Below, one piece after another: positions 18-9,909 of a stretch of 10,092 nt of DNA. The DNA lies in the IMG/VR virus record IMGVR_UViG_2671180636_000007; one strand, 5' to 3'. The DNA is from a virus. Taxonomy: Duplodnaviria; Heunggongvirae; Uroviricota; Caudoviricetes. The position numbers were made by a program, and so were the translations under genes. The notes below the pieces were generated by a model, which was not told the origin of the DNA, did not search any database, and was given only the letters and a program-made list of their open reading frames with translations. Position 1 is the stretch's first letter. Every line of letters starts with the position of its first letter.

Positions 18-2073
18 AAACGGTTGAAATGTATGCCGCTACTTACGGGTCCTGTAATCCTCTGAATAAACCAGAGGGAAAAGATCTCAANNNNNNNNNN
101 NNNNNNNNNNNNNNNNNNNNNNNNNNNNNNNNNNNNNNNNNNNNNNNNNNNNNNNNNNNNNNNNNNNNNNNNNNNNNNNNNNNNNNNNNNNNNNNNNNNN
201 NNNNNNNNNNNNNNNNNNNNNNNNNNNNNNNNNNNNNNNNNNNNNNNNNNNNNNNNNNNNNNNNNNNNNNNNNNNNNNNNNNNNNNNNNNNNNNNNNNNN
301 NNNNNNNNNNNNNNNNNNNNNNNNNNNNNNNNNNNNNNNNNNNNNNNNNNNNNNNNNNNNNNNNNNNNNNNNNNNNNNNNNNNNNNNNNNNNNNNNNNNN
401 NNNNNNNNNNNNNNNNNNNNNNNNNNNNNNNNNNNNNNNNNNNNNNNNNNNNNNNNNNNNNNNNNNNNNNNNNNNNNNNNNNNNNNNNNNNNNNNNNNNN
501 NNNNNNNNNNNNNNNNNNNNNNNNNNNNNNNNNNNNNNNNNNNNNNNCACTGTCTGGTNNNNNNNNNNNNNNNNNNNNNNNNNNNNNNNNNNNNNNNNNN
601 NNNNNNNNNNNNNNNNNNNNNNNNNNNNNNNNNNNNNNNNNNNNNNNNNNNNNNNNNNNNNNNNNNNNNNNNNNNNNNNNNNNNNNNNNNNNNNNNNNNN
701 NNNNNNNNNNNNNNNNNNNNNNNNNNNNNNNNNNNNNNNNNNNNNNNNNNNNNNNNNNNNNNNNNNNNNNNNNNNNNNNNNNNNNNNNNNNNNNNNNNNN
801 NNNNNNNNNNNNNNNNNNNNNNNNNNNNNNNNNNNNNNNNNNNNNNNNNNNNNNNNNNNNNNNNNNNNNNNNNNNNNNNNNNNNNNNNNNNNNNNNNNNN
901 NNNNNNNNNNNNNNNNNNNNNNNNNNNNNNNNNNNNNNNNNNNNNNNNNNNNNNNNNNNNNNNNNNNNNNNNNNNNNNNNNNNNNNNNNNNNNNNNNNNN
1001 NNNNNNNNNNNNNNNNNNNNNNNNNNNNNNNNNNNNNNNNNNNNNNNNNNNNNNNNNNNNNNNNNNNNNNNNNNNNNNNNNNNNNNNNNNNNNNNNNNNN
1101 NNNNNNNNNNNNNNNNNNNNNNNNNNNNNNNNNNNNNNNNNNNNNNNNNNNNNNNNNNNNNNNNNNNNNNNNNNNNNNNNNNNNNNNNNNNNNNNNNNNN
1201 NNNNNGCTTGCTGCTACTTTGNNNNNNNNNNNNNNNNNNNNNNNNNNNNNNNNNNNNNNNNNNNNNNNNNNNNNNNNNNNNNNNNNNNNNNNNNNNNNNN
1301 NNNNNNNNNNNNNNNNNNNNNNNNNNNNNNNNNNNNNNNNNNNNNNNNNNNNNNNNNNNNNNNNNNNNNNNNNNNNNNNNNNNNNNNNNNNNNNNNNNNN
1401 NNNNNNNNNNNNNNNNNNNNNNNNNNNNNNNNNNNNNNNNNNNNNNNNNNNNNNNNNNNNNNNNNNNNNNNNNNNNNNNNNNNNNNNNNNNNNNNNNNNN
1501 NNNNNNNNNNNNNNNNNNNNNNNNNNNNNNNNNNNNNNNNNNNNNNNNNNNNNNNNNNNNNNNNNNNNNNNNNNNNNNNNNNNNNNNNNNNNNNNNNNNN
1601 NNNNNNNNNNNNNNNNNNNNNNNNNNNNNNNNNNNNNNNNNNNNNNNNNNNNNNNNNNNNNNNNNNNNNNNNNNNNNNNNNNNNNNNNNNNNNNNNNNNN
1701 NNNNNNNNNNNNNNNNNNNNNNNNNNNNNNNNNNNNNNNNNNNNNNNNNNNNNNNNNNNNNNNNNNNNNNNNNNNNNNNNNNNNNNNNNNNNNNNNNNNN
1801 NNNNNNNNNNNNNNNNNNNNNNNNNNNNNNNNNNNNNNNNNNNNNNNNNNNNNNNNNNNNNNNNNNNNNNNNNNNNNNNNNNNNNNNNNNNNNNNNNNNN
1901 NNNNNNNNNNNNNNNNNNNNNNNNNNNNNNNNNNNNNNNNNNNNNNNNNNNNNNNNNNNNNNNNNNNNNNNNNNNNNNNNNNNNNNNNNNNNNNNNNNNN
2001 NNNNNNNNNNNNNNNNNNNNNNNNNNNNNNNNNNNNNNNNNNNNNNNNNNNNNNNNNNNNNATAGGGCGGATT

Positions 2074-2359
2074 ATGAATCTTGGAGAATATTTGCATCAT
2101 TTTCATATAACCCAGAGTTCATTTGCTGAGATTGTTGGCGCATCCCAAGGGATGGTCAGCNNNNNNNNNNNNNNNNNNNNNNNNNNNNNNNNNNNNNNNN
2201 NNNNAACTTACAGGAGAAAAAATATTACGTTGGTGTGAAGCAACGGGATGGGTGGTGACCCCACATGAGATTGACAGTAAAACCTACCCCAACCCAACTG
2301 ACGGCTTGCCTGCTGAGTTTCAGGCTAACACACAACCATCGGCGGGGGTTGATTCATGA
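2074..2359 (+). CDS. Cro/YdaS-like HTH DNA-binding regulator, with an apparent reading-frame discontinuity inside the 44-nt masked block 2161-2204
   Basis: ATG at 2074 preceded by AGGGCGG (2064-2070). The N-terminal 29 aa MNLGEYLHHFHITQSSFAEIVGASQGMVS has an XRE/Cro-type helix-turn-helix signature (SQSSFAEIVGxSQGMVS pattern). After the mask the protein-like reading (LTGEKILRWCEATGWVVTPHEID...) is in the next frame and ends with TGA at 2357-2359, overlapping the downstream ATG at 2356 (ATGA coupling). The original frame stops at 2236-2238. The total would be about 95 aa if continuous. Confidence 0.55.
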
Positions 2360-2781
2360 AAATCAAGCATGAACACATCCGCATGGCGATGAAAGCCTGG
2401 GCGCATCCGGACGGTGAAAAAGTTCCGGCAGCTGAAATAACCAGGGTTTATTTCGAACTGGGAATGACGTTTCCGGTTCTGCATAACGACAGCAAGCACA
2501 ACACGCTTTATCTCAACACCCAAAAGATTTTCCGTTGGCTGGATAAAGACACCCCTGACGCTGTTGAAAAAATTCAGGCGTTGTTACCTGCGATCGAAAG
2601 GGCAATGCCACCTCCGCTGGTGGCTCGAATGCGCAGCCACAGTTCAGCTTATTTTCGGGAACTGGTGGAGACGCATGAACGACTGGTGAGAGACGCTGAT
2701 GATTTTGTCGCAGTGGCAATCGCCGGTTTCAATCAGATGAACCGTGGTGGCCCGGCAGGAAATGCTGTGGCAGTACATTGA
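2356..2781 (+). CDS. YdaT-like (CII-like) prophage regulatory protein, 141 aa; family assignment tentative
   Basis: Complete unmasked ORF with ATG 2356 and TGA 2779-2781. GGGGGT lies 6 nt upstream and the start overlaps the upstream stop in ATGA. It sits immediately after a Cro-like gene and before the replication genes, which is the YdaT position in Rac-type prophages. The N-terminus MKIKHEHI and the size match my recollection of the YdaT family, not a search. Confidence 0.7.
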   Translation: MKIKHEHIRMAMKAWAHPDGEKVPAAEITRVYFELGMTFPVLHNDSKHNTLYLNTQKIFRWLDKDTPDAVEKIQALLPAIERAMPPPLVARMRSHSSAYFRELVETHERLVRDADDFVAVAIAGFNQMNRGGPAGNAVAVH

Positions 2782-2852
2782 CTGACAATAGCCATATCGA
2801 ATCGCTCCCGGCAACTCGTGAGTAAAAAGATTCGGTATCAGAAGAGGTGAGT

Positions 2853-3749
2853 ATGGCTAACGCCTGGCTCAGATTATGGCATGACATGCCAAATGACCCT
2901 AAGTGGCGAACAATTGCCAGGGTGTCAGGGCAGCCAATTGCAACAGTGATGGCAGTGTATATCCACCTCCTGGTGAGCGCGTCACGAAATGTCACGCGAG
3001 GTCACATTGATGTCACGACAGAAGATTTGGCAAGTGCGCTCGACGTGACAGAAGAGGTAATTGATTCAATTTTGCAGACGATGCAGGGGCGGGTACTTGA
3101 TGGTGATTTAATCACTGGATGGGAAAAACGCCAGGTGCTTAAAGAGGACAACGGCAATATTTCGCAAACCGCAAAATCTCCTGCAGAGCGCAAGAGGGCG
3201 CAGCGAGAGAGGGAAAGAAAGCGGGAACAAAATGGCGATTGTCANNNNNNNNNNNNNNNNNNNNNNNNNNNNNNNNNNNNNNNNNNNNNNNNNNNNNNNN
3301 NNNNNNNNNNNNNNNNNNNNNNNNNNNNNNNNNNNNNNNNNNNNNNNNNNNNNNNNNNNNNNNNNNNNNNNNNNNNNNNNNNNNNNNNNNNNNNNNNNNN
3401 NNNNNNNNNNNNNNNNNNNNCCGGAAGCCGATTNNNNNNNNNNNNNNNNNNNNNNNNNNNNNNNNNNNNNNNNNNNNNNNNNNNNNNNNNNNNNNNNNNN
3501 NNNNNNNNNNNNNNNNNNNNNNNNNNNNNNNNNNNNNNNNNNNNNNNNNNNNNNNNNNNNNNNNNNNNNNNNNNNNNNNNNNNNNNNNNNNNNNNNNNNN
3601 NNNNNNNNNNNNNNNNNNNNNNNNNNNNNNNNNNNNNNNNNNNNNNNNNNNNNNNNNNNNNNNNNNNNNNNNNNNNNNNNNNNNNNNNNNNNNNNNNNNN
3701 NNNNNNNNNNNCGAGGGGGTGCCACCAGAGACCATGCTGGATGGTGTGA
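2853..3749 (+). CDS. Phage replisome organizer / replication initiator (O-like; replisome-organizer N-terminal domain family)
   Basis: ATG 2853 with AAGAGGT 5 nt upstream. The visible N-terminal 130 aa (MANAWLRLWHDMPNDPKWRTIARV...DLASALDVTEEVIDSILQTMQGRVLDGDLITGWEKRQ) fits the replisome-organizer N-terminal pattern W-x-K/R-L...DPK......E-D-L-A...L-x-V-x-E-E......G-L-I...W-E-K-R-Q. A basic, charged linker follows (ERKRAQRERERKREQ). The 3' end is uncertain: the frame passes through masked blocks 3244-3420 and 3434-3711 and stops at TGA 3747-3749. Confidence 0.7.
   Translation: MANAWLRLWHDMPNDPKWRTIARVSGQPIATVMAVYIHLLVSASRNVTRGHIDVTTEDLASALDVTEEVIDSILQTMQGRVLDGDLITGWEKRQVLKEDNGNISQTAKSPAERKRAQRERERKREQNGDCXXXXXXXXXXXXXXXXXXXXXXXXXXXXXXXXXXXXXXXXXXXXXXXXXXXXXXXXXXXXGSRXXXXXXXXXXXXXXXXXXXXXXXXXXXXXXXXXXXXXXXXXXXXXXXXXXXXXXXXXXXXXXXXXXXXXXXXXXXXXXXXXXXXXXXXXXXXXXRGCHQRPCWMV
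2981..3050. repeat. Iteron-like GTCAC(G) repeats inside the replisome-organizer gene; candidate replication origin
   Basis: Seen: GTCACG at 2981, GTCACG at 2991, GTCAC at 3001 and GTCACG at 3012 (10-11 bp phasing), plus an inverted copy CGTGACA at 3044-3050. GACAGAAGA is duplicated at 3017-3025 and 3046-3054. An AT-rich stretch 'gtaattgattcaattttg' follows at about 3057-3074. The repeats fall in all three codon positions, so they are not explained by amino-acid repetition alone. Confidence 0.45.
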
Positions 3750-4152
3750 GGCGTTACGCGAGATACCTGGCGGCGACCGGGAAAGCNNNNNNNNNNNNNN
3801 NNNNNNNNNNNNNNNNNNNNNNNNNNNNNNNNNNNNNNNNNNNNNNNNNNNNNNNNNNNNNNNNNNNNNNNNNNNNNNNNNNNNNNNNNNNNNNNNNNNN
3901 NNNNNNNNNNNNNNNNNNNNNNNNNNNNNNNNNNNNNNNNNNNNNNNNNNNNNNNNNNNNNNNNNNNNNNNNNNNNNNNNNNNNNNNNNNNNNNNNNNNN
4001 NNNNNNNNNNNNNNNNNNNNNNNNNNNNNNNNNNNNNNNNNNNNNNNNNNNNNNNNNNNNNNNNNNNNNNNNNNNNNNNNNNNNNNNNNNNNNNNNNNNN
4101 NNNNNNNNNNNNNNNNNNNNNNNNNNNNNNNNNNNNNNNNNNNNNNNNNNNN

Positions 4153-4890
4153 NNNNNNNNNNNNNNNNNNNNNNNNNNNNNNNNNNNNNNNNNNNNNNNN
4201 NNNNNNNNNNNNNNNNNNNNNNNNNNNNNNNNNNNNNNNNNNNNNNNNNNNNNNNNNNNNNNNNNNNNNNNNNNNNNNNNNNNNNNNNNNNNNNNNNNNN
4301 NNNNNNNNNNNNNNNNNNNNNNNNNNNNNNNNNNNNNNNNNNNNNNNNNNNNNNNNNNNNNNNNNNNNNNNNNNNNNNNNNNNNNNNNNNNNNNNNNNNN
4401 NNNNNNNNNNNNNNNNNNNNNNNNNNNNNNNNNNNNNNNNNNNNNNNNNNNNNNNNNNNNNNNNNNNNNNNNNNNNNNNNNNNNNNNNNNNNNNNNNNNN
4501 NNNNNNNNNNNNNNNNNNNNNNNNNNNNNNNNNNNNNNNNNNNNNNNNNNNNNNNNNNNNNNNNNNNNNNNNNNNNNNNNNNNNNNNNNNNNNNNNNNNN
4601 NNNNNNNNNNNNNNNNNNNNNNNNNNNNNNNNNNNNNNNNNNNNNNNNNNNNNNNNNNNNNNNNNNNNNNNNNNNCGAAAAACGAGCAGGTGGTATTGCA
4701 CCAGATAATTGATCGCCGGACAGCATCACTGTGCAGTGTCGGGATGTTAACAAACCTGAATCATGCCGCAATGAGCACGCTTCTTGGTGAGAGGATTATG
4801 GACCGCATGACCATGAACGGTTGTCGGTGGGTGACGTTTAACTGGGATAGCTGGCGTTCAAATGTCAGCTTTCCGGGAGTTGTGAAGTAA
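4153..4890 (+). CDS. DnaC-family replicative helicase loader (YdaV/P-like); only the C-terminal 71 codons (4676-4890) are visible and the start coordinate is an estimate
   Basis: The visible C-terminus KNEQVVLHQIIDRRTASLCSVGMLTNLNHAAMSTLLGERIMDRMTMNGCRWVTFNWDSWRSNVS matches, nearly motif for motif, the C-terminus of E. coli DnaC as I recall it (...QIVDRR...GMLTN.N.EEM.KLLGERVMDRM......VIFNWDSYRS.V). Stop TAA at 4888-4890. The start lies in masked block 3787-4675; 4153 is extrapolated from a DnaC-like length of about 245 aa. Confidence 0.6.
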   Translation, partial: XXXXXXXXXXXXXXXXXXXXXXXXXXXXXXXXXXXXXXXXXXXXXXXXXXXXXXXXXXXXXXXXXXXXXXXXXXXXXXXXXXXXXXXXXXXXXXXXXXXXXXXXXXXXXXXXXXXXXXXXXXXXXXXXXXXXXXXXXXXXXXXXXXXXXXXXXXXXXXXXXXXXXXXXXXXXXXXKNEQVVLHQIIDRRTASLCSVGMLTNLNHAAMSTLLGERIMDRMTMNGCRWVTFNWDSWRSNVSFPGVVK

Positions 4891-4911
4891 TTTTTGTTGG
4901 AGGATGTTTTA

Positions 4912-6183
4912 ATGGAAACTGTATTTGACGCACTGAAAGCACTGAAAAGAGCCTCTTCACATGTGGTGGCGTCCCGCCTTGGAATCAGCCGTGAAGATGC
5001 GGTCAACGAACTGTGGAAACTGAAGCGCCGTGGTGAAGCGGATAACAAGGGTTCGATGTGGTGGCTGATTCAGGCTGGTGAAAGTGAACCAGTGTCACCG
5101 GTACCGAAAGTGACAGCGCAAATGCTGACTGAGGCGATTGAACAACATGGCCCACAAACGGCGGATGAGCTGGCACTGATGTTCGGGATTACCTCNNNNN
5201 NNNNNNNNNNNNNNNNNNNNNNNNNNNNNNNNNNNNNNNNNNNNNNNNNNNNNNNNNNNNNNNNNNNNNNNNNNNNNNNNNNNNNNNNNNNNNNNNNNNN
5301 NNNNNNNNNNNNNNNNNNNNNNNNNNNNNNNNNNNNNNNNNAAGCCGCATCCATAGCGGAAACGGATGGTAAAGTNNNNNNNNNNNNNNNNNNNNNNNNN
5401 NNNNNNNNNNNNNNNNNNNNNNNNNNNNNNNNNNNNNNNNNNNNNNNNNNNNNNNNNNNNNNNNNNNNNNNNNNNNNNNNNNNNNNNNNNNNNNNNNNNN
5501 NNNNNNNNNNNNNNNNNNNNNNNNNNNNNNNNNNNNNNNNNNNNNNNNNNNNNNNNNNNNNNNNNNNNNNNNNNNNNNNNNNNNNNNNNNNNNNNNNNNN
5601 NNNNNNNNNNNNNNNNNNNNNNNNNNNNNNNNNNNNNNNNNNNNNNNNNNNNNNNNNNNNNNNNNNNNNNNNNNNNNNNNNNNNNNNNNNNNNNNNNNNN
5701 NNNNNNNNNNNNNNNNNNNNNNNNNNNNNNNNNNNNNNNNNNNNNNNNNNNNNNNNNNNNNNNNNNNNNNNNNNNNNNNNNNNNNNNNNNNNNNNNNNNN
5801 NNNNNNNNNNNNNNNNNNNNNNNNNNNNNNNNNNNNNNNNNNNNNNNNNNNNNNNNNNNNNNNNNNNNNNNNNNNNNNNNNNNNNNNNNNNNNNNNNNNN
5901 NNNNNNNNNNNNNNNNNNNNNNNNNNNNNNNNNNNNNNNNNNNNNNNNNNNNNNNNNNNNNCAGGCTCGTAAGGACTGGCAAAACGCCCGCAAAAAACTC
6001 TCGAGGGCAAAGCTGAAGAAACCATCTGTGGTTGATCCGGACCTTATCTGGTCATTACCGGACGGAGAAATACGCCGCTACGACAGACATCAGAACATAA
6101 TCTGTCGCGAGTGCCGGAAGAGTGAAGTTATGCAGCGTGTACCGGCTTTCTATCAGGGTGATTTTCAGGAGGCGGTACTGTGA
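4912..6183 (+). CDS. Uncharacterised protein with two tandem winged-helix-like segments at the N-terminus; the frame stays open across two masked blocks to TGA 6181-6183, so this may be one gene of about 423 aa or two genes
   Basis: ATG 4912 with a strong GGAGGA RBS (4898-4903) 21 nt after the DnaC-like stop. Visible N-terminus METVFDALKALKRASSHVVASRLGISREDAVNELWKLKRRGE...KVTAQMLTEAIEQHGPQTADELALMFGIT (two HTH-like units). Visible C-terminal part (5962-6183) ...QARKDWQNARKKLSRAKLKKPS...IICRECRKSEVMQRVPAFYQGDFQEAVL. Masked blocks 5196-5341 and 5376-5961 could hide a stop and a restart. Confidence 0.45.
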   Translation: METVFDALKALKRASSHVVASRLGISREDAVNELWKLKRRGEADNKGSMWWLIQAGESEPVSPVPKVTAQMLTEAIEQHGPQTADELALMFGITXXXXXXXXXXXXXXXXXXXXXXXXXXXXXXXXXXXXXXXXXXXXXXXXXXAASIAETDGKXXXXXXXXXXXXXXXXXXXXXXXXXXXXXXXXXXXXXXXXXXXXXXXXXXXXXXXXXXXXXXXXXXXXXXXXXXXXXXXXXXXXXXXXXXXXXXXXXXXXXXXXXXXXXXXXXXXXXXXXXXXXXXXXXXXXXXXXXXXXXXXXXXXXXXXXXXXXXXXXXXXXXXXXXXXXXXXXXXXXXXXXXXXXXXXXXXXXQARKDWQNARKKLSRAKLKKPSVVDPDLIWSLPDGEIRRYDRHQNIICRECRKSEVMQRVPAFYQGDFQEAVL

Positions 6184-6240
6184 GTGAAATTAGCTATCAG
6201 GCTTCAATTACCGCTGGCATTCGCATCAAAGGAGAGGAGC

Positions 6241-6597
6241 ATGGAAATAAAACCAGAAGATGAGTTAAGCAATATTGTTTTATTTCCGGTAAAAGAGGAT
6301 AACCCTCGTAATCAGGTTAATTTTCTTTATGAGCCATCGGAAAGACCATATTGCCATCACGCCTCTGTACGGGTTGACGAAAAAGAGCGTCAGGTCCGCT
6401 GTAAAATCTGCGGTGCGGTTGTGGAGCCGTTTGACTGGATGCTCTCTGTGGCAAAAAGAGAAACCAGACTGGCAGATGATGTAAGGCTCTTGCGCCAGGA
6501 GGAGCGGGAAAGGCGAAAAAATATAGAAAAGCTAATCCAGATTGAGCGTAATGCGAAAGCGCGGATACGCAGGGTGACAAAATATAGCCCCGAATAA
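6241..6597 (+). CDS. Small uncharacterised protein (118 aa) with a putative zinc-ribbon (C-H-H ... C-x2-C) and a charged coiled-coil C-terminal tail
   Basis: Fully unmasked ORF with ATG 6241 and an AAAGGAGAGGAG RBS directly upstream; stop TAA 6595-6597. Sequence MEIKPEDELSNIVLFPVKEDNPRNQVNFLYEPSERPYCHHASVRVDEKERQVRCKICGAVVEPFDWMLSVAKRETRLADDVRLLRQEERERRKNIEKLIQIERNAKARIRRVTKYSPE. I cannot assign a family from memory. Confidence 0.7.
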   Translation: MEIKPEDELSNIVLFPVKEDNPRNQVNFLYEPSERPYCHHASVRVDEKERQVRCKICGAVVEPFDWMLSVAKRETRLADDVRLLRQEERERRKNIEKLIQIERNAKARIRRVTKYSPE

Positions 6598-6745: not shown

Positions 6746-6801
6746 GTTATGAGATCGACTTGGTGCGTGATATTCTTCGGGCCAGTTTGCTATGCGCCAC
6801 C

Positions 6802-8547
6802 ATGAGNNNNNNNNNNNNNNNNNNNNNNNNNNNNNNNNNNNNNNNNNNNNNNNNNNNNNNNNNNNNNNNNNNNNNNNNNNNNNNNNNNNNNNNNNNNNNN
6901 NNNNNNNNNNNNNNNNNNNNNNNNNNNNNNNNNNNNNNNNNNNNNNNNNNNNNNNNNNNNNNNNNNNNNNNNNNNNNNNNNNNNNNNNNNNNNNNNNNNN
7001 NNNNNNNNNNNNNNNNNNNNNNNNNNNNNNNNNNNNNNNNNNNNNNNNNNNNNNNNNNNNNNNNNNNNNNNNNNNNNNNNNNNNNNNNNNNNNNNNNNNN
7101 NNNNNNNNNNNNNNNNNNNNNNNNNNNNNNNNNNNNNNNNNNNNNNNNNNNNNNNNNNNNNNNNNNNNNNNNNNNNNNNNNNNNNNNNNNNNNNNNNNNN
7201 NNNNNNNNNNNNNNNNNNNNNNNNTATCTGATTGGGTCAATTTATACGGTAATGCTGCCATCCGCTTACCGTTCGGAATTGGGGGCTTACTATACCCCCC
7301 CACCTTTGGTAGCGCGTCTCTTGGACCTGGCTGAAAAGTCTGGTGTTGATTTTTCTCATGCATCGGTTATTGATCCTGCGTGTGGTGGCGGTGCATTTTT
7401 GGCACCAGTAGCCATTCGAATGTTAAAAAAAGACAAGGGGTCTTCCCCTGAATGGATGTTGAGGAGAATCAGTCGTCGTTTAAAGGGGATAGAGATCGAT
7501 CCATTTGCGGCTTGGATGAGTTTGGTATTGCTCGAATCTGTACTAATGCCACTATGTGTAAAGGTAAAACGTAGATTGCCTGAAGATACAATTATTGTTG
7601 CTGATGCGCTTCAGCAAGATAAATTTTCTGGTTATGATCTTGTGGTAGGGAATCCGCCTTACGGACGTGTCACTCTCGATATTAAAACGAGAGAAAAATA
7701 TTCTCGTTCGTTATTTGGTCATGCAAATCTATATGGATTGTTCACCGACTTAGCTGTTCGCATGGTTAAAGAGAAAACAGGAGTTATTGCATTTCTTACG
7801 CCAACTTCTTTTCTTGGTGGGCAGTATTTCACCGCGCTGCGAACCCTTTTGACCGAAAAAACTACTCCGTATGCCCTTGATTTCGTCACTGACAGGGATG
7901 GGGTCTTTGACGATGTTCTCCAGGAAACAATGTTGACAGCATTCAAGGCGGGAGAACATAAAGTTCGGGCCCAGGTATCCTCACTTGTCCCTAAGGGGTT
8001 GAACAAAGCAAAAATTGAGAAAATAGGTAATGTTGATATAGAAAAAGGTGGAGCAACGTGGCTTTTGCCACGCGTTAAAGATGATGCCTGTTTTCTTAAT
8101 GTATTAAAACAGATGTCTACGCGTTTAGCTGATCTGGGATACTCAGTCTCTACAGGTCAGTTAGTCTGGAATCGATTTAAGTCGCAGTTGCGTACGACGA
8201 AAGGAAAAAATAGCTACCCATTAGTCTGGGCGGAATCAATAACTTCAGCTGGTTTTCGTTTTAGTGCAGACAGAAAAAATCATGTTCCCTATATCGATAT
8301 AACCCCACAACAGGGTTTCCTTGTGACAAAATCTGAATGTGTGCTTGTTCAGCGGACAACATCGAAGGAACAGGACAGAAGGATTTTAGCGGCAATTTTA
8401 CCTCAGGGATTTATAGATGAAACTGGTGGCGTAGTAGTTGAAAACCATATTAATATTGTATATTCAAACGGATTGTTCTCTGCGGTTCGCCCTGATGTTA
8501 TTGATATGCTACTTAATTCGCATGTTGTCGATCGGGCGTTCAGGTGT
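6802..8547 (+). CDS. Gamma-class N6-adenine DNA methyltransferase (Eco57I/PstI-methylase-like) of a restriction-modification system; both ends lie in masked sequence
   Basis: The visible 441 codons (7225-8547) contain GAYYTPPPLVARLLDL, motif I DPACGGGAFLAP (FxGxG-type SAM pocket) and motif IV NPPYGR (N6-adenine catalytic motif) in the gamma-class order. A possible in-frame ATG at 6802 (no clear SD) precedes masked block 6807-7224, so the true start could be there or inside the mask. The 3' end is in masked block 8548-9254. Confidence 0.85.
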
Positions 8548-9254
8548 NNNNNNNNNNNNNNNNNNNNNNNNNNNNNNNNNNNNNNNNNNNNNNNNNNNNN
8601 NNNNNNNNNNNNNNNNNNNNNNNNNNNNNNNNNNNNNNNNNNNNNNNNNNNNNNNNNNNNNNNNNNNNNNNNNNNNNNNNNNNNNNNNNNNNNNNNNNNN
8701 NNNNNNNNNNNNNNNNNNNNNNNNNNNNNNNNNNNNNNNNNNNNNNNNNNNNNNNNNNNNNNNNNNNNNNNNNNNNNNNNNNNNNNNNNNNNNNNNNNNN
8801 NNNNNNNNNNNNNNNNNNNNNNNNNNNNNNNNNNNNNNNNNNNNNNNNNNNNNNNNNNNNNNNNNNNNNNNNNNNNNNNNNNNNNNNNNNNNNNNNNNNN
8901 NNNNNNNNNNNNNNNNNNNNNNNNNNNNNNNNNNNNNNNNNNNNNNNNNNNNNNNNNNNNNNNNNNNNNNNNNNNNNNNNNNNNNNNNNNNNNNNNNNNN
9001 NNNNNNNNNNNNNNNNNNNNNNNNNNNNNNNNNNNNNNNNNNNNNNNNNNNNNNNNNNNNNNNNNNNNNNNNNNNNNNNNNNNNNNNNNNNNNNNNNNNN
9101 NNNNNNNNNNNNNNNNNNNNNNNNNNNNNNNNNNNNNNNNNNNNNNNNNNNNNNNNNNNNNNNNNNNNNNNNNNNNNNNNNNNNNNNNNNNNNNNNNNNN
9201 NNNNNNNNNNNNNNNNNNNNNNNNNNNNNNNNNNNNNNNNNNNNNNNNNNNNNN

Positions 9255-9909
9255 CTTTGATGCCGGGCTTGAAGGAGATTCGCTGCTGAGTGCAATAAGT
9301 TCCTGGCAAGAAAATCATTTGAACAAAGCCGCTCTTGCTAGGTTGCGTTTATTGAAATCAGGGGCAGTGATTGCTGCTGATGCCGTAGTCGTCACTTTCC
9401 CAAATGGAGAGAAGAGAACTTTAGCTCCGGGCCCGTCAAGTACAATAGCTAAGGCCGTCATCGAAGTTTTTGCTCCTAATTTTCTTAAGAATCCAACTGT
9501 GCTCTGGTTGTCTGAATCCGGGAATAAAGTTGTTGCTCAGGATGATGTATTGGCAAAAGCATTGGGGCTGAATATTGATGCCTCAAAAGCACTTCCAGAT
9601 ATTATTTTGATTGATTTGGGAGAGGACCGAACGGGTTCGGACATGCTTGTAGTTTTCACTGAAGTAGTTGCGACAGATGGGCCTATAAACAGGGAACGAA
9701 AAGTTACTCTCACTCATTTGGCTATTGACGCTGGGTTCAGCGAGAAAAATCTTGCATTCCTTACGGCATTTATGGACAGAAGTGCTCTGCCTTTTAAAAA
9801 GGCAATACCAGAATTGGCGTGGGGATCTTATGCATGGTTTGCTTCTGAACCGGAGCACTTAATTGATCTTCGGGATGGTTATCCGGTAAAGATCAGCCAG
9901 AGAAAATGA
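9255..9909 (+). CDS. Putative Type II restriction endonuclease, C-terminal 218 codons visible (BsuBI/PstI-like assignment tentative); the 5' end is masked and the protein could alternatively be the C-terminal part of an M-R fusion
   Basis: Protein-like frame immediately downstream of, and in the same frame as, the methyltransferase: ...LPDIILIDLGEDRTGSDMLVVFTEVVATDGPINRERKVTLTHLAIDAGFSEKNLAFLTAFMD...; stop TGA 9907-9909. The PD...D...E-V-V segment is reminiscent of a PD-(D/E)xK-type core, and the overall feel resembles BsuBI/PstI-family REase C-terminal domains (from memory, not a search). Position next to a gamma-class MTase supports an R role. Confidence 0.55.

Follow-up and report, generated by a model that had tools for sequence, protein, structure and literature searches.

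The window, by which we mean the whole 10,092-base stretch of phage DNA analysed here, contains the gene of a predicted replication initiator (hereafter the initiator gene), which starts with the ATG at 2853, preceded by a good ribosome-binding site. N makes up about half of the window, and the longest unmasked stretch, 2205-3244, contains the first of two arrays of short direct repeats (array 1), both of which lie inside the initiator gene. Most of array 2 is masked and was read in relatives, among them the IMG/VR contig L046, to which the visible pieces can be aligned. The features of the locus are as follows.

2356-2781, plus strand: YdaT-like gene in the cII position, directly upstream of the initiator gene (Pfam YdaT_toxin, 5e-9).
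2853-3244, plus strand: visible 5' part of the initiator gene (codons 1-130), encoding the N-terminal domain, which is modelled as a winged helix.
2981-3017, plus strand: iteron array 1, with GTCACG at 2981-2986, GTCACG at 2991-2996, GTCACA at 3001-3006 and GTCACG at 3012-3017.
3044-3050, minus strand: inverted copy CGTGACA, at the turn before the putative recognition helix.
3240-3244, plus strand: TGTCA, the visible start of the first unit of array 2 (the unit starts at 3241), the rest being under the mask.
3245-3420, plus strand: masked stretch, probably containing the remainder of array 2, followed by the A-rich tract ACAGATACAGATAAAGATACAGATAAAGAAGATCAAAAC and the inverted repeat GGTCCATGGCGT-AAAAA-ACGCCACGAACC.
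3421-3433 and 3712-3786 (within 3421-3786), plus strand: further visible pieces of the initiator gene, which map to L046 3059-3071 and 3334-3408.
4676-4890, plus strand: 3' end of a DnaC-like helicase loader gene, which maps to L046 4104-4318; the remainder is masked.
2161-2204, 3245-3420 and 3434-3711: examples of N runs.

The N runs do not keep the length of the DNA that they replace: in L046, 44 N correspond to 22 nt, 176 N to 166 nt and 278 N to 262 nt. Window coordinates inside the mask 3245-3420 are not meaningful, since the N runs lack their true length, and open reading frames drawn across masks (2847-3749 and 6760-9909) have unreliable frames and ends. The listed end at 3749 is an artefact because N runs lose length; the visible piece 3712-3786 is out of frame in window coordinates. 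A first scan of viral contigs returned solely E. coli prophages with 100% identity, which are uninformative on divergence and served to read the masked part. In three IMG/VR contigs (L046, L054 and L063), compared over the window pieces within 548-5375, each visible piece is present, exact and in the same order, and the gap sizes differ. Moreover, phage Tritos is 100% identical to the window over 2853-3244.

In L046 the full initiator gene (2501-3565) has 354 codons, and the window pieces at 3421-3433 and 3712-3786 belong to the variable C-terminal part of its product. RefSeq names the gene 'DnaT-like ssDNA-binding domain-containing protein'; the NCBIfam DnaT match is weak (E 0.0016) and covers the C-terminal 24 residues only. 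The first 130 residues strongly match PHROG 3729, 'replication initiation protein', and the matches to 'replisome organizer' PHROGs are weak. With Pfam Phage_rep_org_N (PF09681) the protein scores 16.5 bits (E 0.0085), below the gathering cut-off of 23.3, despite an alignment that spans model positions 1-119 of 121. Neither the 130 residues visible in the window nor the full-length Tritos protein matches Phage_rep_O, the lambda O family, at E <= 0.01. There is no match of the initiator to Pfam RepA_N (PF06970), a sequence profile search of the PDB found no relative, and Foldseek against the PDB gave no significant match. Judged by these searches, the initiator appears to lie outside the lambda O, RepA_N and Pfam replisome-organizer families. 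The loader gene follows directly in L046 (3572-4318), where its product matches NF009043 (2.4e-150) and DnaC (1.9e-88), whereas in the Pseudomonas relative L002 the gene beside the initiator encodes a primase/helicase instead.

Further along the window, 6760-9909 (plus strand, partly masked) holds a restriction-modification pair inside the prophage, composed of an N6-adenine methyltransferase (Eco57I/N6_Mtase matches, NPPY motif) and a restriction endonuclease of the BsuBI/PstI type (PF06616, 3e-45); the one long ORF listed across this part is a masking artefact. The stretch 6184-6597 (plus strand) encodes a 137-residue protein with a weak, sub-cut-off match to a TFIIB Zn ribbon and a basic coiled C-terminal part. 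No known RNA families were found across the window.

A sequence-only reading of the window had described four direct GTCAC(G) copies at 2981, 2991, 3001 and 3012 and an inverted copy at 3044-3050, and all of them are confirmed. The direct units follow each other at 10, 10 and 11 nt. As that reading had also noticed, they differ in codon position: they begin at positions 3, 1, 2 and 1, using all three phases, and are read as S-R, V-T, G-H and V-T. They encode the end of the helix of residues 29-45 and the loop at residues 46-55, within the N-terminal domain (codons 43-55). In 2000 dinucleotide-preserving shuffles of the visible window sequence, no 5-mer ever formed a four-copy chain with steps of 10/11 nt, and a chain of three was reached in 62. 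When the spacing rule is dropped, some 5-mer is present at least fourfold within 40 nt in 30 of 1000 shuffles. Finally, with the protein held fixed and its codons redrawn, four GTCAC were obtained in 4 of 20000 draws.

The last direct unit (TGTCACG, 3011-3017) and the inverted copy (CGTGACA, 3044-3050) are the two arms of a perfect 7-nt inverted repeat, separated by 26 nt. An inverted GTGAC is found at gene nt 193-194 in most genes that share the GTCACG word (181 where the locus starts at codon 5), and the Val65 codon, which belongs to this copy, is 0.99 identical among Val-bearing sequences. Some homologues have lost it (L096, L097 and L098), and it was not found in genes of the CGAACGC class.

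The AT-rich stretch just downstream had been taken as an unwinding region, and this part of the earlier reading has to be given up. The stretch 3055-3075 is 71% A+T in the window and ranges from 38 to 81% in 24 homologues, where its synonymous sites are free of constraint; as the homologues conserve it neither in A+T content nor at synonymous sites, we rejected it as an unwinding element. A DnaA-box-like TATATCCAC at gene nt 106-114, seen by eye, was also discarded; it departs from the consensus at two positions and shows no nucleotide conservation. No predicted promoter overlaps array 1, and the one weak hit elsewhere in the 900 nt searched is the number expected from shuffles. Likewise, the single terminator-like hit in 900 nt is no excess over shuffles; it coincides with the hairpin described below.

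For comparison among relatives we took one genome per species, which gave 67 loci from gamma-, beta- and alpha-proteobacteria. Constraint was measured in 24 non-redundant GTCACG-class genes from gamma- and beta-proteobacteria, whose hosts range from Escherichia to Bordetella and Pseudomonas. Genes of this class carry array 1 at gene nt 129, 139, 149 and 160, and a second set of repeats at about 387-430. Where two of the 24 genes encode the same residue, they share the codon in a fraction of 0.84-1.00 at the codons of the repeat word and of about 0.2-0.5 elsewhere; the spacer codons 49, 52 and 56 vary freely, with codon identities of 0.28-0.35 among such pairs. Third positions are conserved to 0.93 inside the words versus 0.55 elsewhere (Mann-Whitney p = 8e-5). 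Across relatives, 103 of the distances from unit to unit are 10 nt and 30 are 11 nt, and both this spacing and the constraint hold down to about 50% protein identity. Words that are nearly frozen between free spacers are the opposite of free synonymous variation across the repeats. The constraint at the nucleotide level suggested in the sequence-only reading is borne out, and so is the persistence of the periodicity in relatives. The description of the repeats as iteron-like elements inside a replisome-organizer gene is supported as well. These comparisons support the conclusion that the GTCAC repeats are constrained as DNA rather than as peptide.

Array 2 of the window was deduced from relatives and not read directly. 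All 77 loci that contain window 3200-3244 continue with ...TTGTCACGG.., and 74 of the 77 have five GTCAC. In phage Tritos and in L046, window 3244 is followed by TGTCACGgcgcGTCACGaaatGTCACGcacatGTCACGacgaGTCACG and then by an A-rich (GATACA/GATAAA) tract. In L046 the GTCACG copies of array 2 stand at gene nt 389, 399, 409, 420 and 430 (span 389-435), about 260 bp downstream of array 1 and in the same orientation. Nearly all relatives have array 2 at the equivalent position of the gene, between the modelled N-terminal domain and the variable C-terminal part, where the flexible linker is encoded. The initiator of Pseudomonas phage phita81A, for example, is 69.5% identical in its N-terminal domain and differs in its C-terminal part, and the gene keeps both arrays as well as the A-rich tract. 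Array 1 is absent in nine loci that retain array 2.

After array 2, the A+T content is 63% versus 43% in the whole gene, and the purine content 70% versus 56%. The AT-richest 40-nt window of the gene lies here in 37 of 45 loci, and A-rich codons are kept even where the host's gene is only about 31-35% A+T (L103, L105). The lambdoid-like combination of iterons with an AT-rich region, which the earlier reading had placed at array 1, is thus found at array 2 of the relatives and fails at array 1. The number of GATAAAGATACA repeats in the tract varies from about 1.5 to 5 or more copies among close relatives that hardly differ in other respects (L005-L085). This variation alters the length of a DK/DT linker in the protein and points to slippage in what would be the unwinding element.

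The tract is often followed by an inverted repeat: within the next 100 nt the best perfect stem measures 6.23 versus 4.93 in control windows of the same genes (p = 7.6e-6). The stems differ in sequence between loci with their complementarity kept, and the loops recur as CC-T(G/A/T)AC-GG or TCACTACGTTC. The hairpin was located at the following positions.

L046 2979-3009: hairpin after the tract.
Gene nt about 386-505: hairpin after the tract in L103, L118, L122, L124, L140 and L142.
Gene nt about 386-505: hairpin after the tract in the further loci L148, L087, L100, L136 and L144.

In the E. coli type, represented by L046, the hairpin resembles an intrinsic terminator on the minus strand. It might be a loading site for helicase or primosome, or the counterpart of the palindrome that adjoins the AT-rich tract of ori-lambda. 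Taken together, the arrangement suggests that the core origin is most likely array 2 with the A-rich stretch, under the mask of the window.

The repeat word differs by lineage. It is GTCACG, GTAACG(C), GAACGC (as CGAACGC), GTGACG(C) or CGTCACG across the 64 homologous loci. The words of array 1 and array 2 were found independently of each other, and the two arrays of a gene share their word: there are 25 pairs with GTCACG, 15 with GAACGC, four with GTAACG and one with GTGACG, and the sole mismatched rows are overlapping words of one longer unit. A locus carries its own word at a density of 18.3 per kb in gene nt 96-500 versus 0.54 elsewhere, a 34-fold difference. The change can be followed in close sisters. 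In L109, Val-Thr is encoded by GTC ACG, whereas in L106 and L110 it is GTA ACG in the Val-Thr units of both arrays. The GTC to GTA switch is synonymous in both arrays and therefore cannot be produced by selection at the protein level. In a rough neighbour-joining tree, from which the iteron-encoded residues had been left out, GTAACG genes occur in several clades, which suggests that such switches happened repeatedly.

A repeat word that changes between lineages calls for a partner that is lineage-specific and encoded in cis. In all 64 loci the first 100 residues of the initiator belong to one homologous group. Single-linkage clustering divides the C-terminal parts into 15 groups, eight of them with more than one member, and the GTCACG class alone has eight groups. 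The N-terminal domain is present in 24 of 24 GTCACG-class loci and is alone in this among the proteins encoded around the window's gene: YdaT-like proteins occur in 2, Cro-like in 1 and DnaC-like in 2 of the 24. The YdaT-like protein is therefore not a constant partner of the repeats.

Between iteron classes the proteins differ most in the loop that array 1 encodes, and a search among the residues outside this loop gave none that clearly tracks the class. The loop (residues 43-56) is also a hot spot of insertions, which are read-outs of extra units (VT, CH, SR, GN); inserts comprise seven residues in E. albertii, corresponding to two extra units, and about 25 in L113, and loop variation is seen in L106, L109, L110, L113 and L129. 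Because array 1 encodes residues 43-56, a change of its word rewrites this surface loop at the same time. If the loop contributed to the specificity of DNA binding, origin and initiator specificity would change in one step. We regard such coupling as a long shot; if true, it would provide a built-in path to new replicon (incompatibility) types.

The N-terminal domain also occurs fused to an HNH nuclease, as in L152 (4001-4546) and L153 (2100-2660); the fusion proteins are P0043, P0061, P0062, P0074, P0101, P0103 and P0113. Their genes retain array 1, with GTCAC at gene nt 132, 142, 152 and 163 and hence the same spacing, and array 2 and the A-rich tract are absent from them. Array 1 can therefore exist without a neighbouring unwinding element, which agrees with a regulatory or targeting role at least as well as with a role in an origin. 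The fusion proteins could be nucleases directed at origins of the two-array type. Beside the fusion gene of L153, a DUF1376 (YdaU-like) gene (2660-3487), which encodes an unrelated type of initiator, shows a like pattern, with about three ACGTT units at about 11-nt steps and then (ACAGAT)x6 at 3015-3095. Iterons followed by a hexamer tract inside coding sequence may thus be a general design of proteobacterial prophage initiators.

The anatomy of the arrays, the constraint on them at the DNA level, their concerted change and their exclusive co-occurrence with the N-terminal domain are direct observations. The remaining steps we infer from the sequences: the binding of the protein, the unwinding, the recruitment of the helicase and the precise function of array 1. 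With good confidence, the repeats can be regarded as sites for the N-terminal domain and as part of an origin system. The fuller reading, a two-array iteron origin inside the initiator gene in which array 1 is an accessory binding array, also seems probable, if with slightly less assurance. Initiator molecules would occupy consecutive units one helical turn apart and, because of this distance, would all be on the same side of the DNA. Once formed on array 2, the complex would destabilise the adjoining A-rich tract, and the C-terminal domain would then recruit the helicase via the DnaC-like loader encoded next door. Array 1, which overlaps the codons of the DNA-binding domain, is more probably an accessory array than the place of unwinding, because it has no unwinding tract, is missing in nine loci and is kept in the HNH fusions. 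From about 260 bp upstream it might raise the local concentration of initiator and loop to array 2, and it might possibly exert feedback on the expression of its own gene. That it has a specific accessory or looping role is put forward tentatively, at a little under an even chance.

The strongest competing explanation is that array 1 is bound by the initiator as a control element, be it an autoregulatory operator, a roadblock or a site of titration or handcuffing comparable to the control iterons of P1/F-type plasmids, and takes no part in the firing of the origin. This would agree with the missing conserved AT-rich tract alongside, with the nine loci in which array 1 is dispensable while array 2 is present, and with the conservation of array 1 in the fusions of the N-terminal domain to HNH, which lack array 2. 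However, no promoter-like site covers array 1, the single weak hit elsewhere being at the level of shuffles, and copy control is less obviously needed in a phage replicon of the lytic phase. These counter-arguments are not decisive, and we consider a pure control element unlikely but a serious candidate.

Much less probable is that the repeats are bound by something other than the initiator, for instance a host factor, a packaging protein or another early phage protein (Cro, YdaT). Short direct-repeat arrays at helical spacing are also known in partition and packaging sites, and binding by the initiator is itself a deduction from sequence. However, a word that changes with the lineage demands a lineage-specific partner encoded in cis, and the N-terminal domain alone is common to all 24 GTCACG-class loci. 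A further protein would also have to serve hosts from Escherichia to Bordetella and Pseudomonas, and the arrays keep fixed positions in the gene with the A-rich tract adjoining. We rate this explanation as very unlikely.

Finally, in E. coli both arrays encode ASRNVT... in the same frame and share an identical 21-nt GCGCGTCACGAAATGTCACGC, again in the same frame, which suggests duplication or gene conversion and could mean that the repeats only reflect a peptide that is repeated or duplicated and have no function at the DNA level. This reading is largely refuted by the synonymous-site data and barely credible, given units read in three frames (VT, CH/GH, SR), frozen synonymous sites in the words next to drifting codons, the rarity of four copies among codon redraws (4 of 20000), the synonymous GTC to GTA switch made by both arrays together and the A-rich codons kept in genes of 31-35% A+T (L103, L105).

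A two-array iteron origin can be compared with several known systems. In lambda and the Stx phages P27 and 933W, iterons and an AT-rich tract lie in the middle of gene O, and in Stx phages two extra iterons amount to 13 extra residues (PMC7466680). The arrangement here is similar in that array 2 and the A-rich tract are in the middle of the initiator gene, with the helicase-loader gene next to it, and in that extra units lengthen the protein, by seven residues in E. albertii. It differs from ori-lambda, whose units are roughly 19 bp with internal symmetry: the units here are head-to-tail, of 10/11 nt with a conserved core of about 7 nt, and the protein has no Phage_rep_O match. Moreover, lambda has a single array, whereas there are two here, one of which overlaps the coding region of the DNA-binding domain.

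In the RepA_N replicons of pSK41 and pTZ2162, Rep boxes in the middle of the rep gene are bound by the N-terminal domain of the initiator, which comprises about 120 residues and has a DnaD-like winged helix; the linker encoded by the origin DNA is dispensable, and the C-terminal domain is specific to the host (PMC5703833, PMC7145576). Most RepA_N iterons are semi-palindromes, and they converge on a poly-A tract (PMC7145576). Array 2 likewise lies in the linker-coding part, and the C-terminal parts belong to many unrelated groups. In contrast, the repeats here are asymmetric and direct, and the protein has neither a Pfam match nor a sequence relative in the PDB. Moreover, RepA_N is a family of Firmicute plasmids, whereas the genes described here are from proteobacterial prophages and have an extra array inside the region coding for the N-terminal domain.

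In phage SPP1, the replisome organizer gp38 binds direct repeats beside an AT-rich unwinding element within its own gene 38; there is a second binding region, and the helicase loader and helicase are then recruited (PMC6316719). The second region of SPP1 lies at a distance of about 13 kb and comes with an unwinding element of its own, whereas the second array here belongs to the same gene, at 260 bp, and lacks such an element. The initiator described here also stays below the Phage_rep_org_N cut-off.

Two clusters of one short repeat serving one initiator are also found in P4 (ori and crr) and in the P1 and F plasmids. In these replicons one cluster lies where unwinding takes place, and the other is required in cis or serves control; the clusters are outside the initiator gene or flank it, and are far apart or serve the control of copy number. 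Here, in contrast, both clusters are inside coding sequence and shape the sequence of the protein. Iterons inside an initiator gene are thus of a known kind, and array 2, tract and hairpin would by analogy correspond to the arrangement of lambda O, pSK41 Rep and SPP1. What is unusual is the presence of two like-oriented arrays per gene, one of them in the DNA-binding-domain part, and the concerted change of the word. A published description of this origin was not found in the open-access literature, an absence that counts as weak evidence.

Similar DNA is present in 3069 of 5426 complete E. coli genomes, in 2176 of them with a match over 80% of the query or more. The region is also present, at 92-94% identity, in seven deposited E. 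coli phage records, and the module is also found in prophages of many Proteobacteria. The order of 10/11-nt units, (GATAAA/GATACA)n and hairpin in the linker-coding region offers a grammar by which origins can be located in a large family of initiators. Annotation is affected as well, because the odd VT/CH/SR and DKDK peptides would be by-products of DNA signals. The analysis is relevant for annotation, for studies of prophage induction and replication and for the design of compatible phage-derived replicons. The joint change of the word in both arrays provides natural material on how the specificity of origins and initiators evolves, and on how DNA signals shape proteins.
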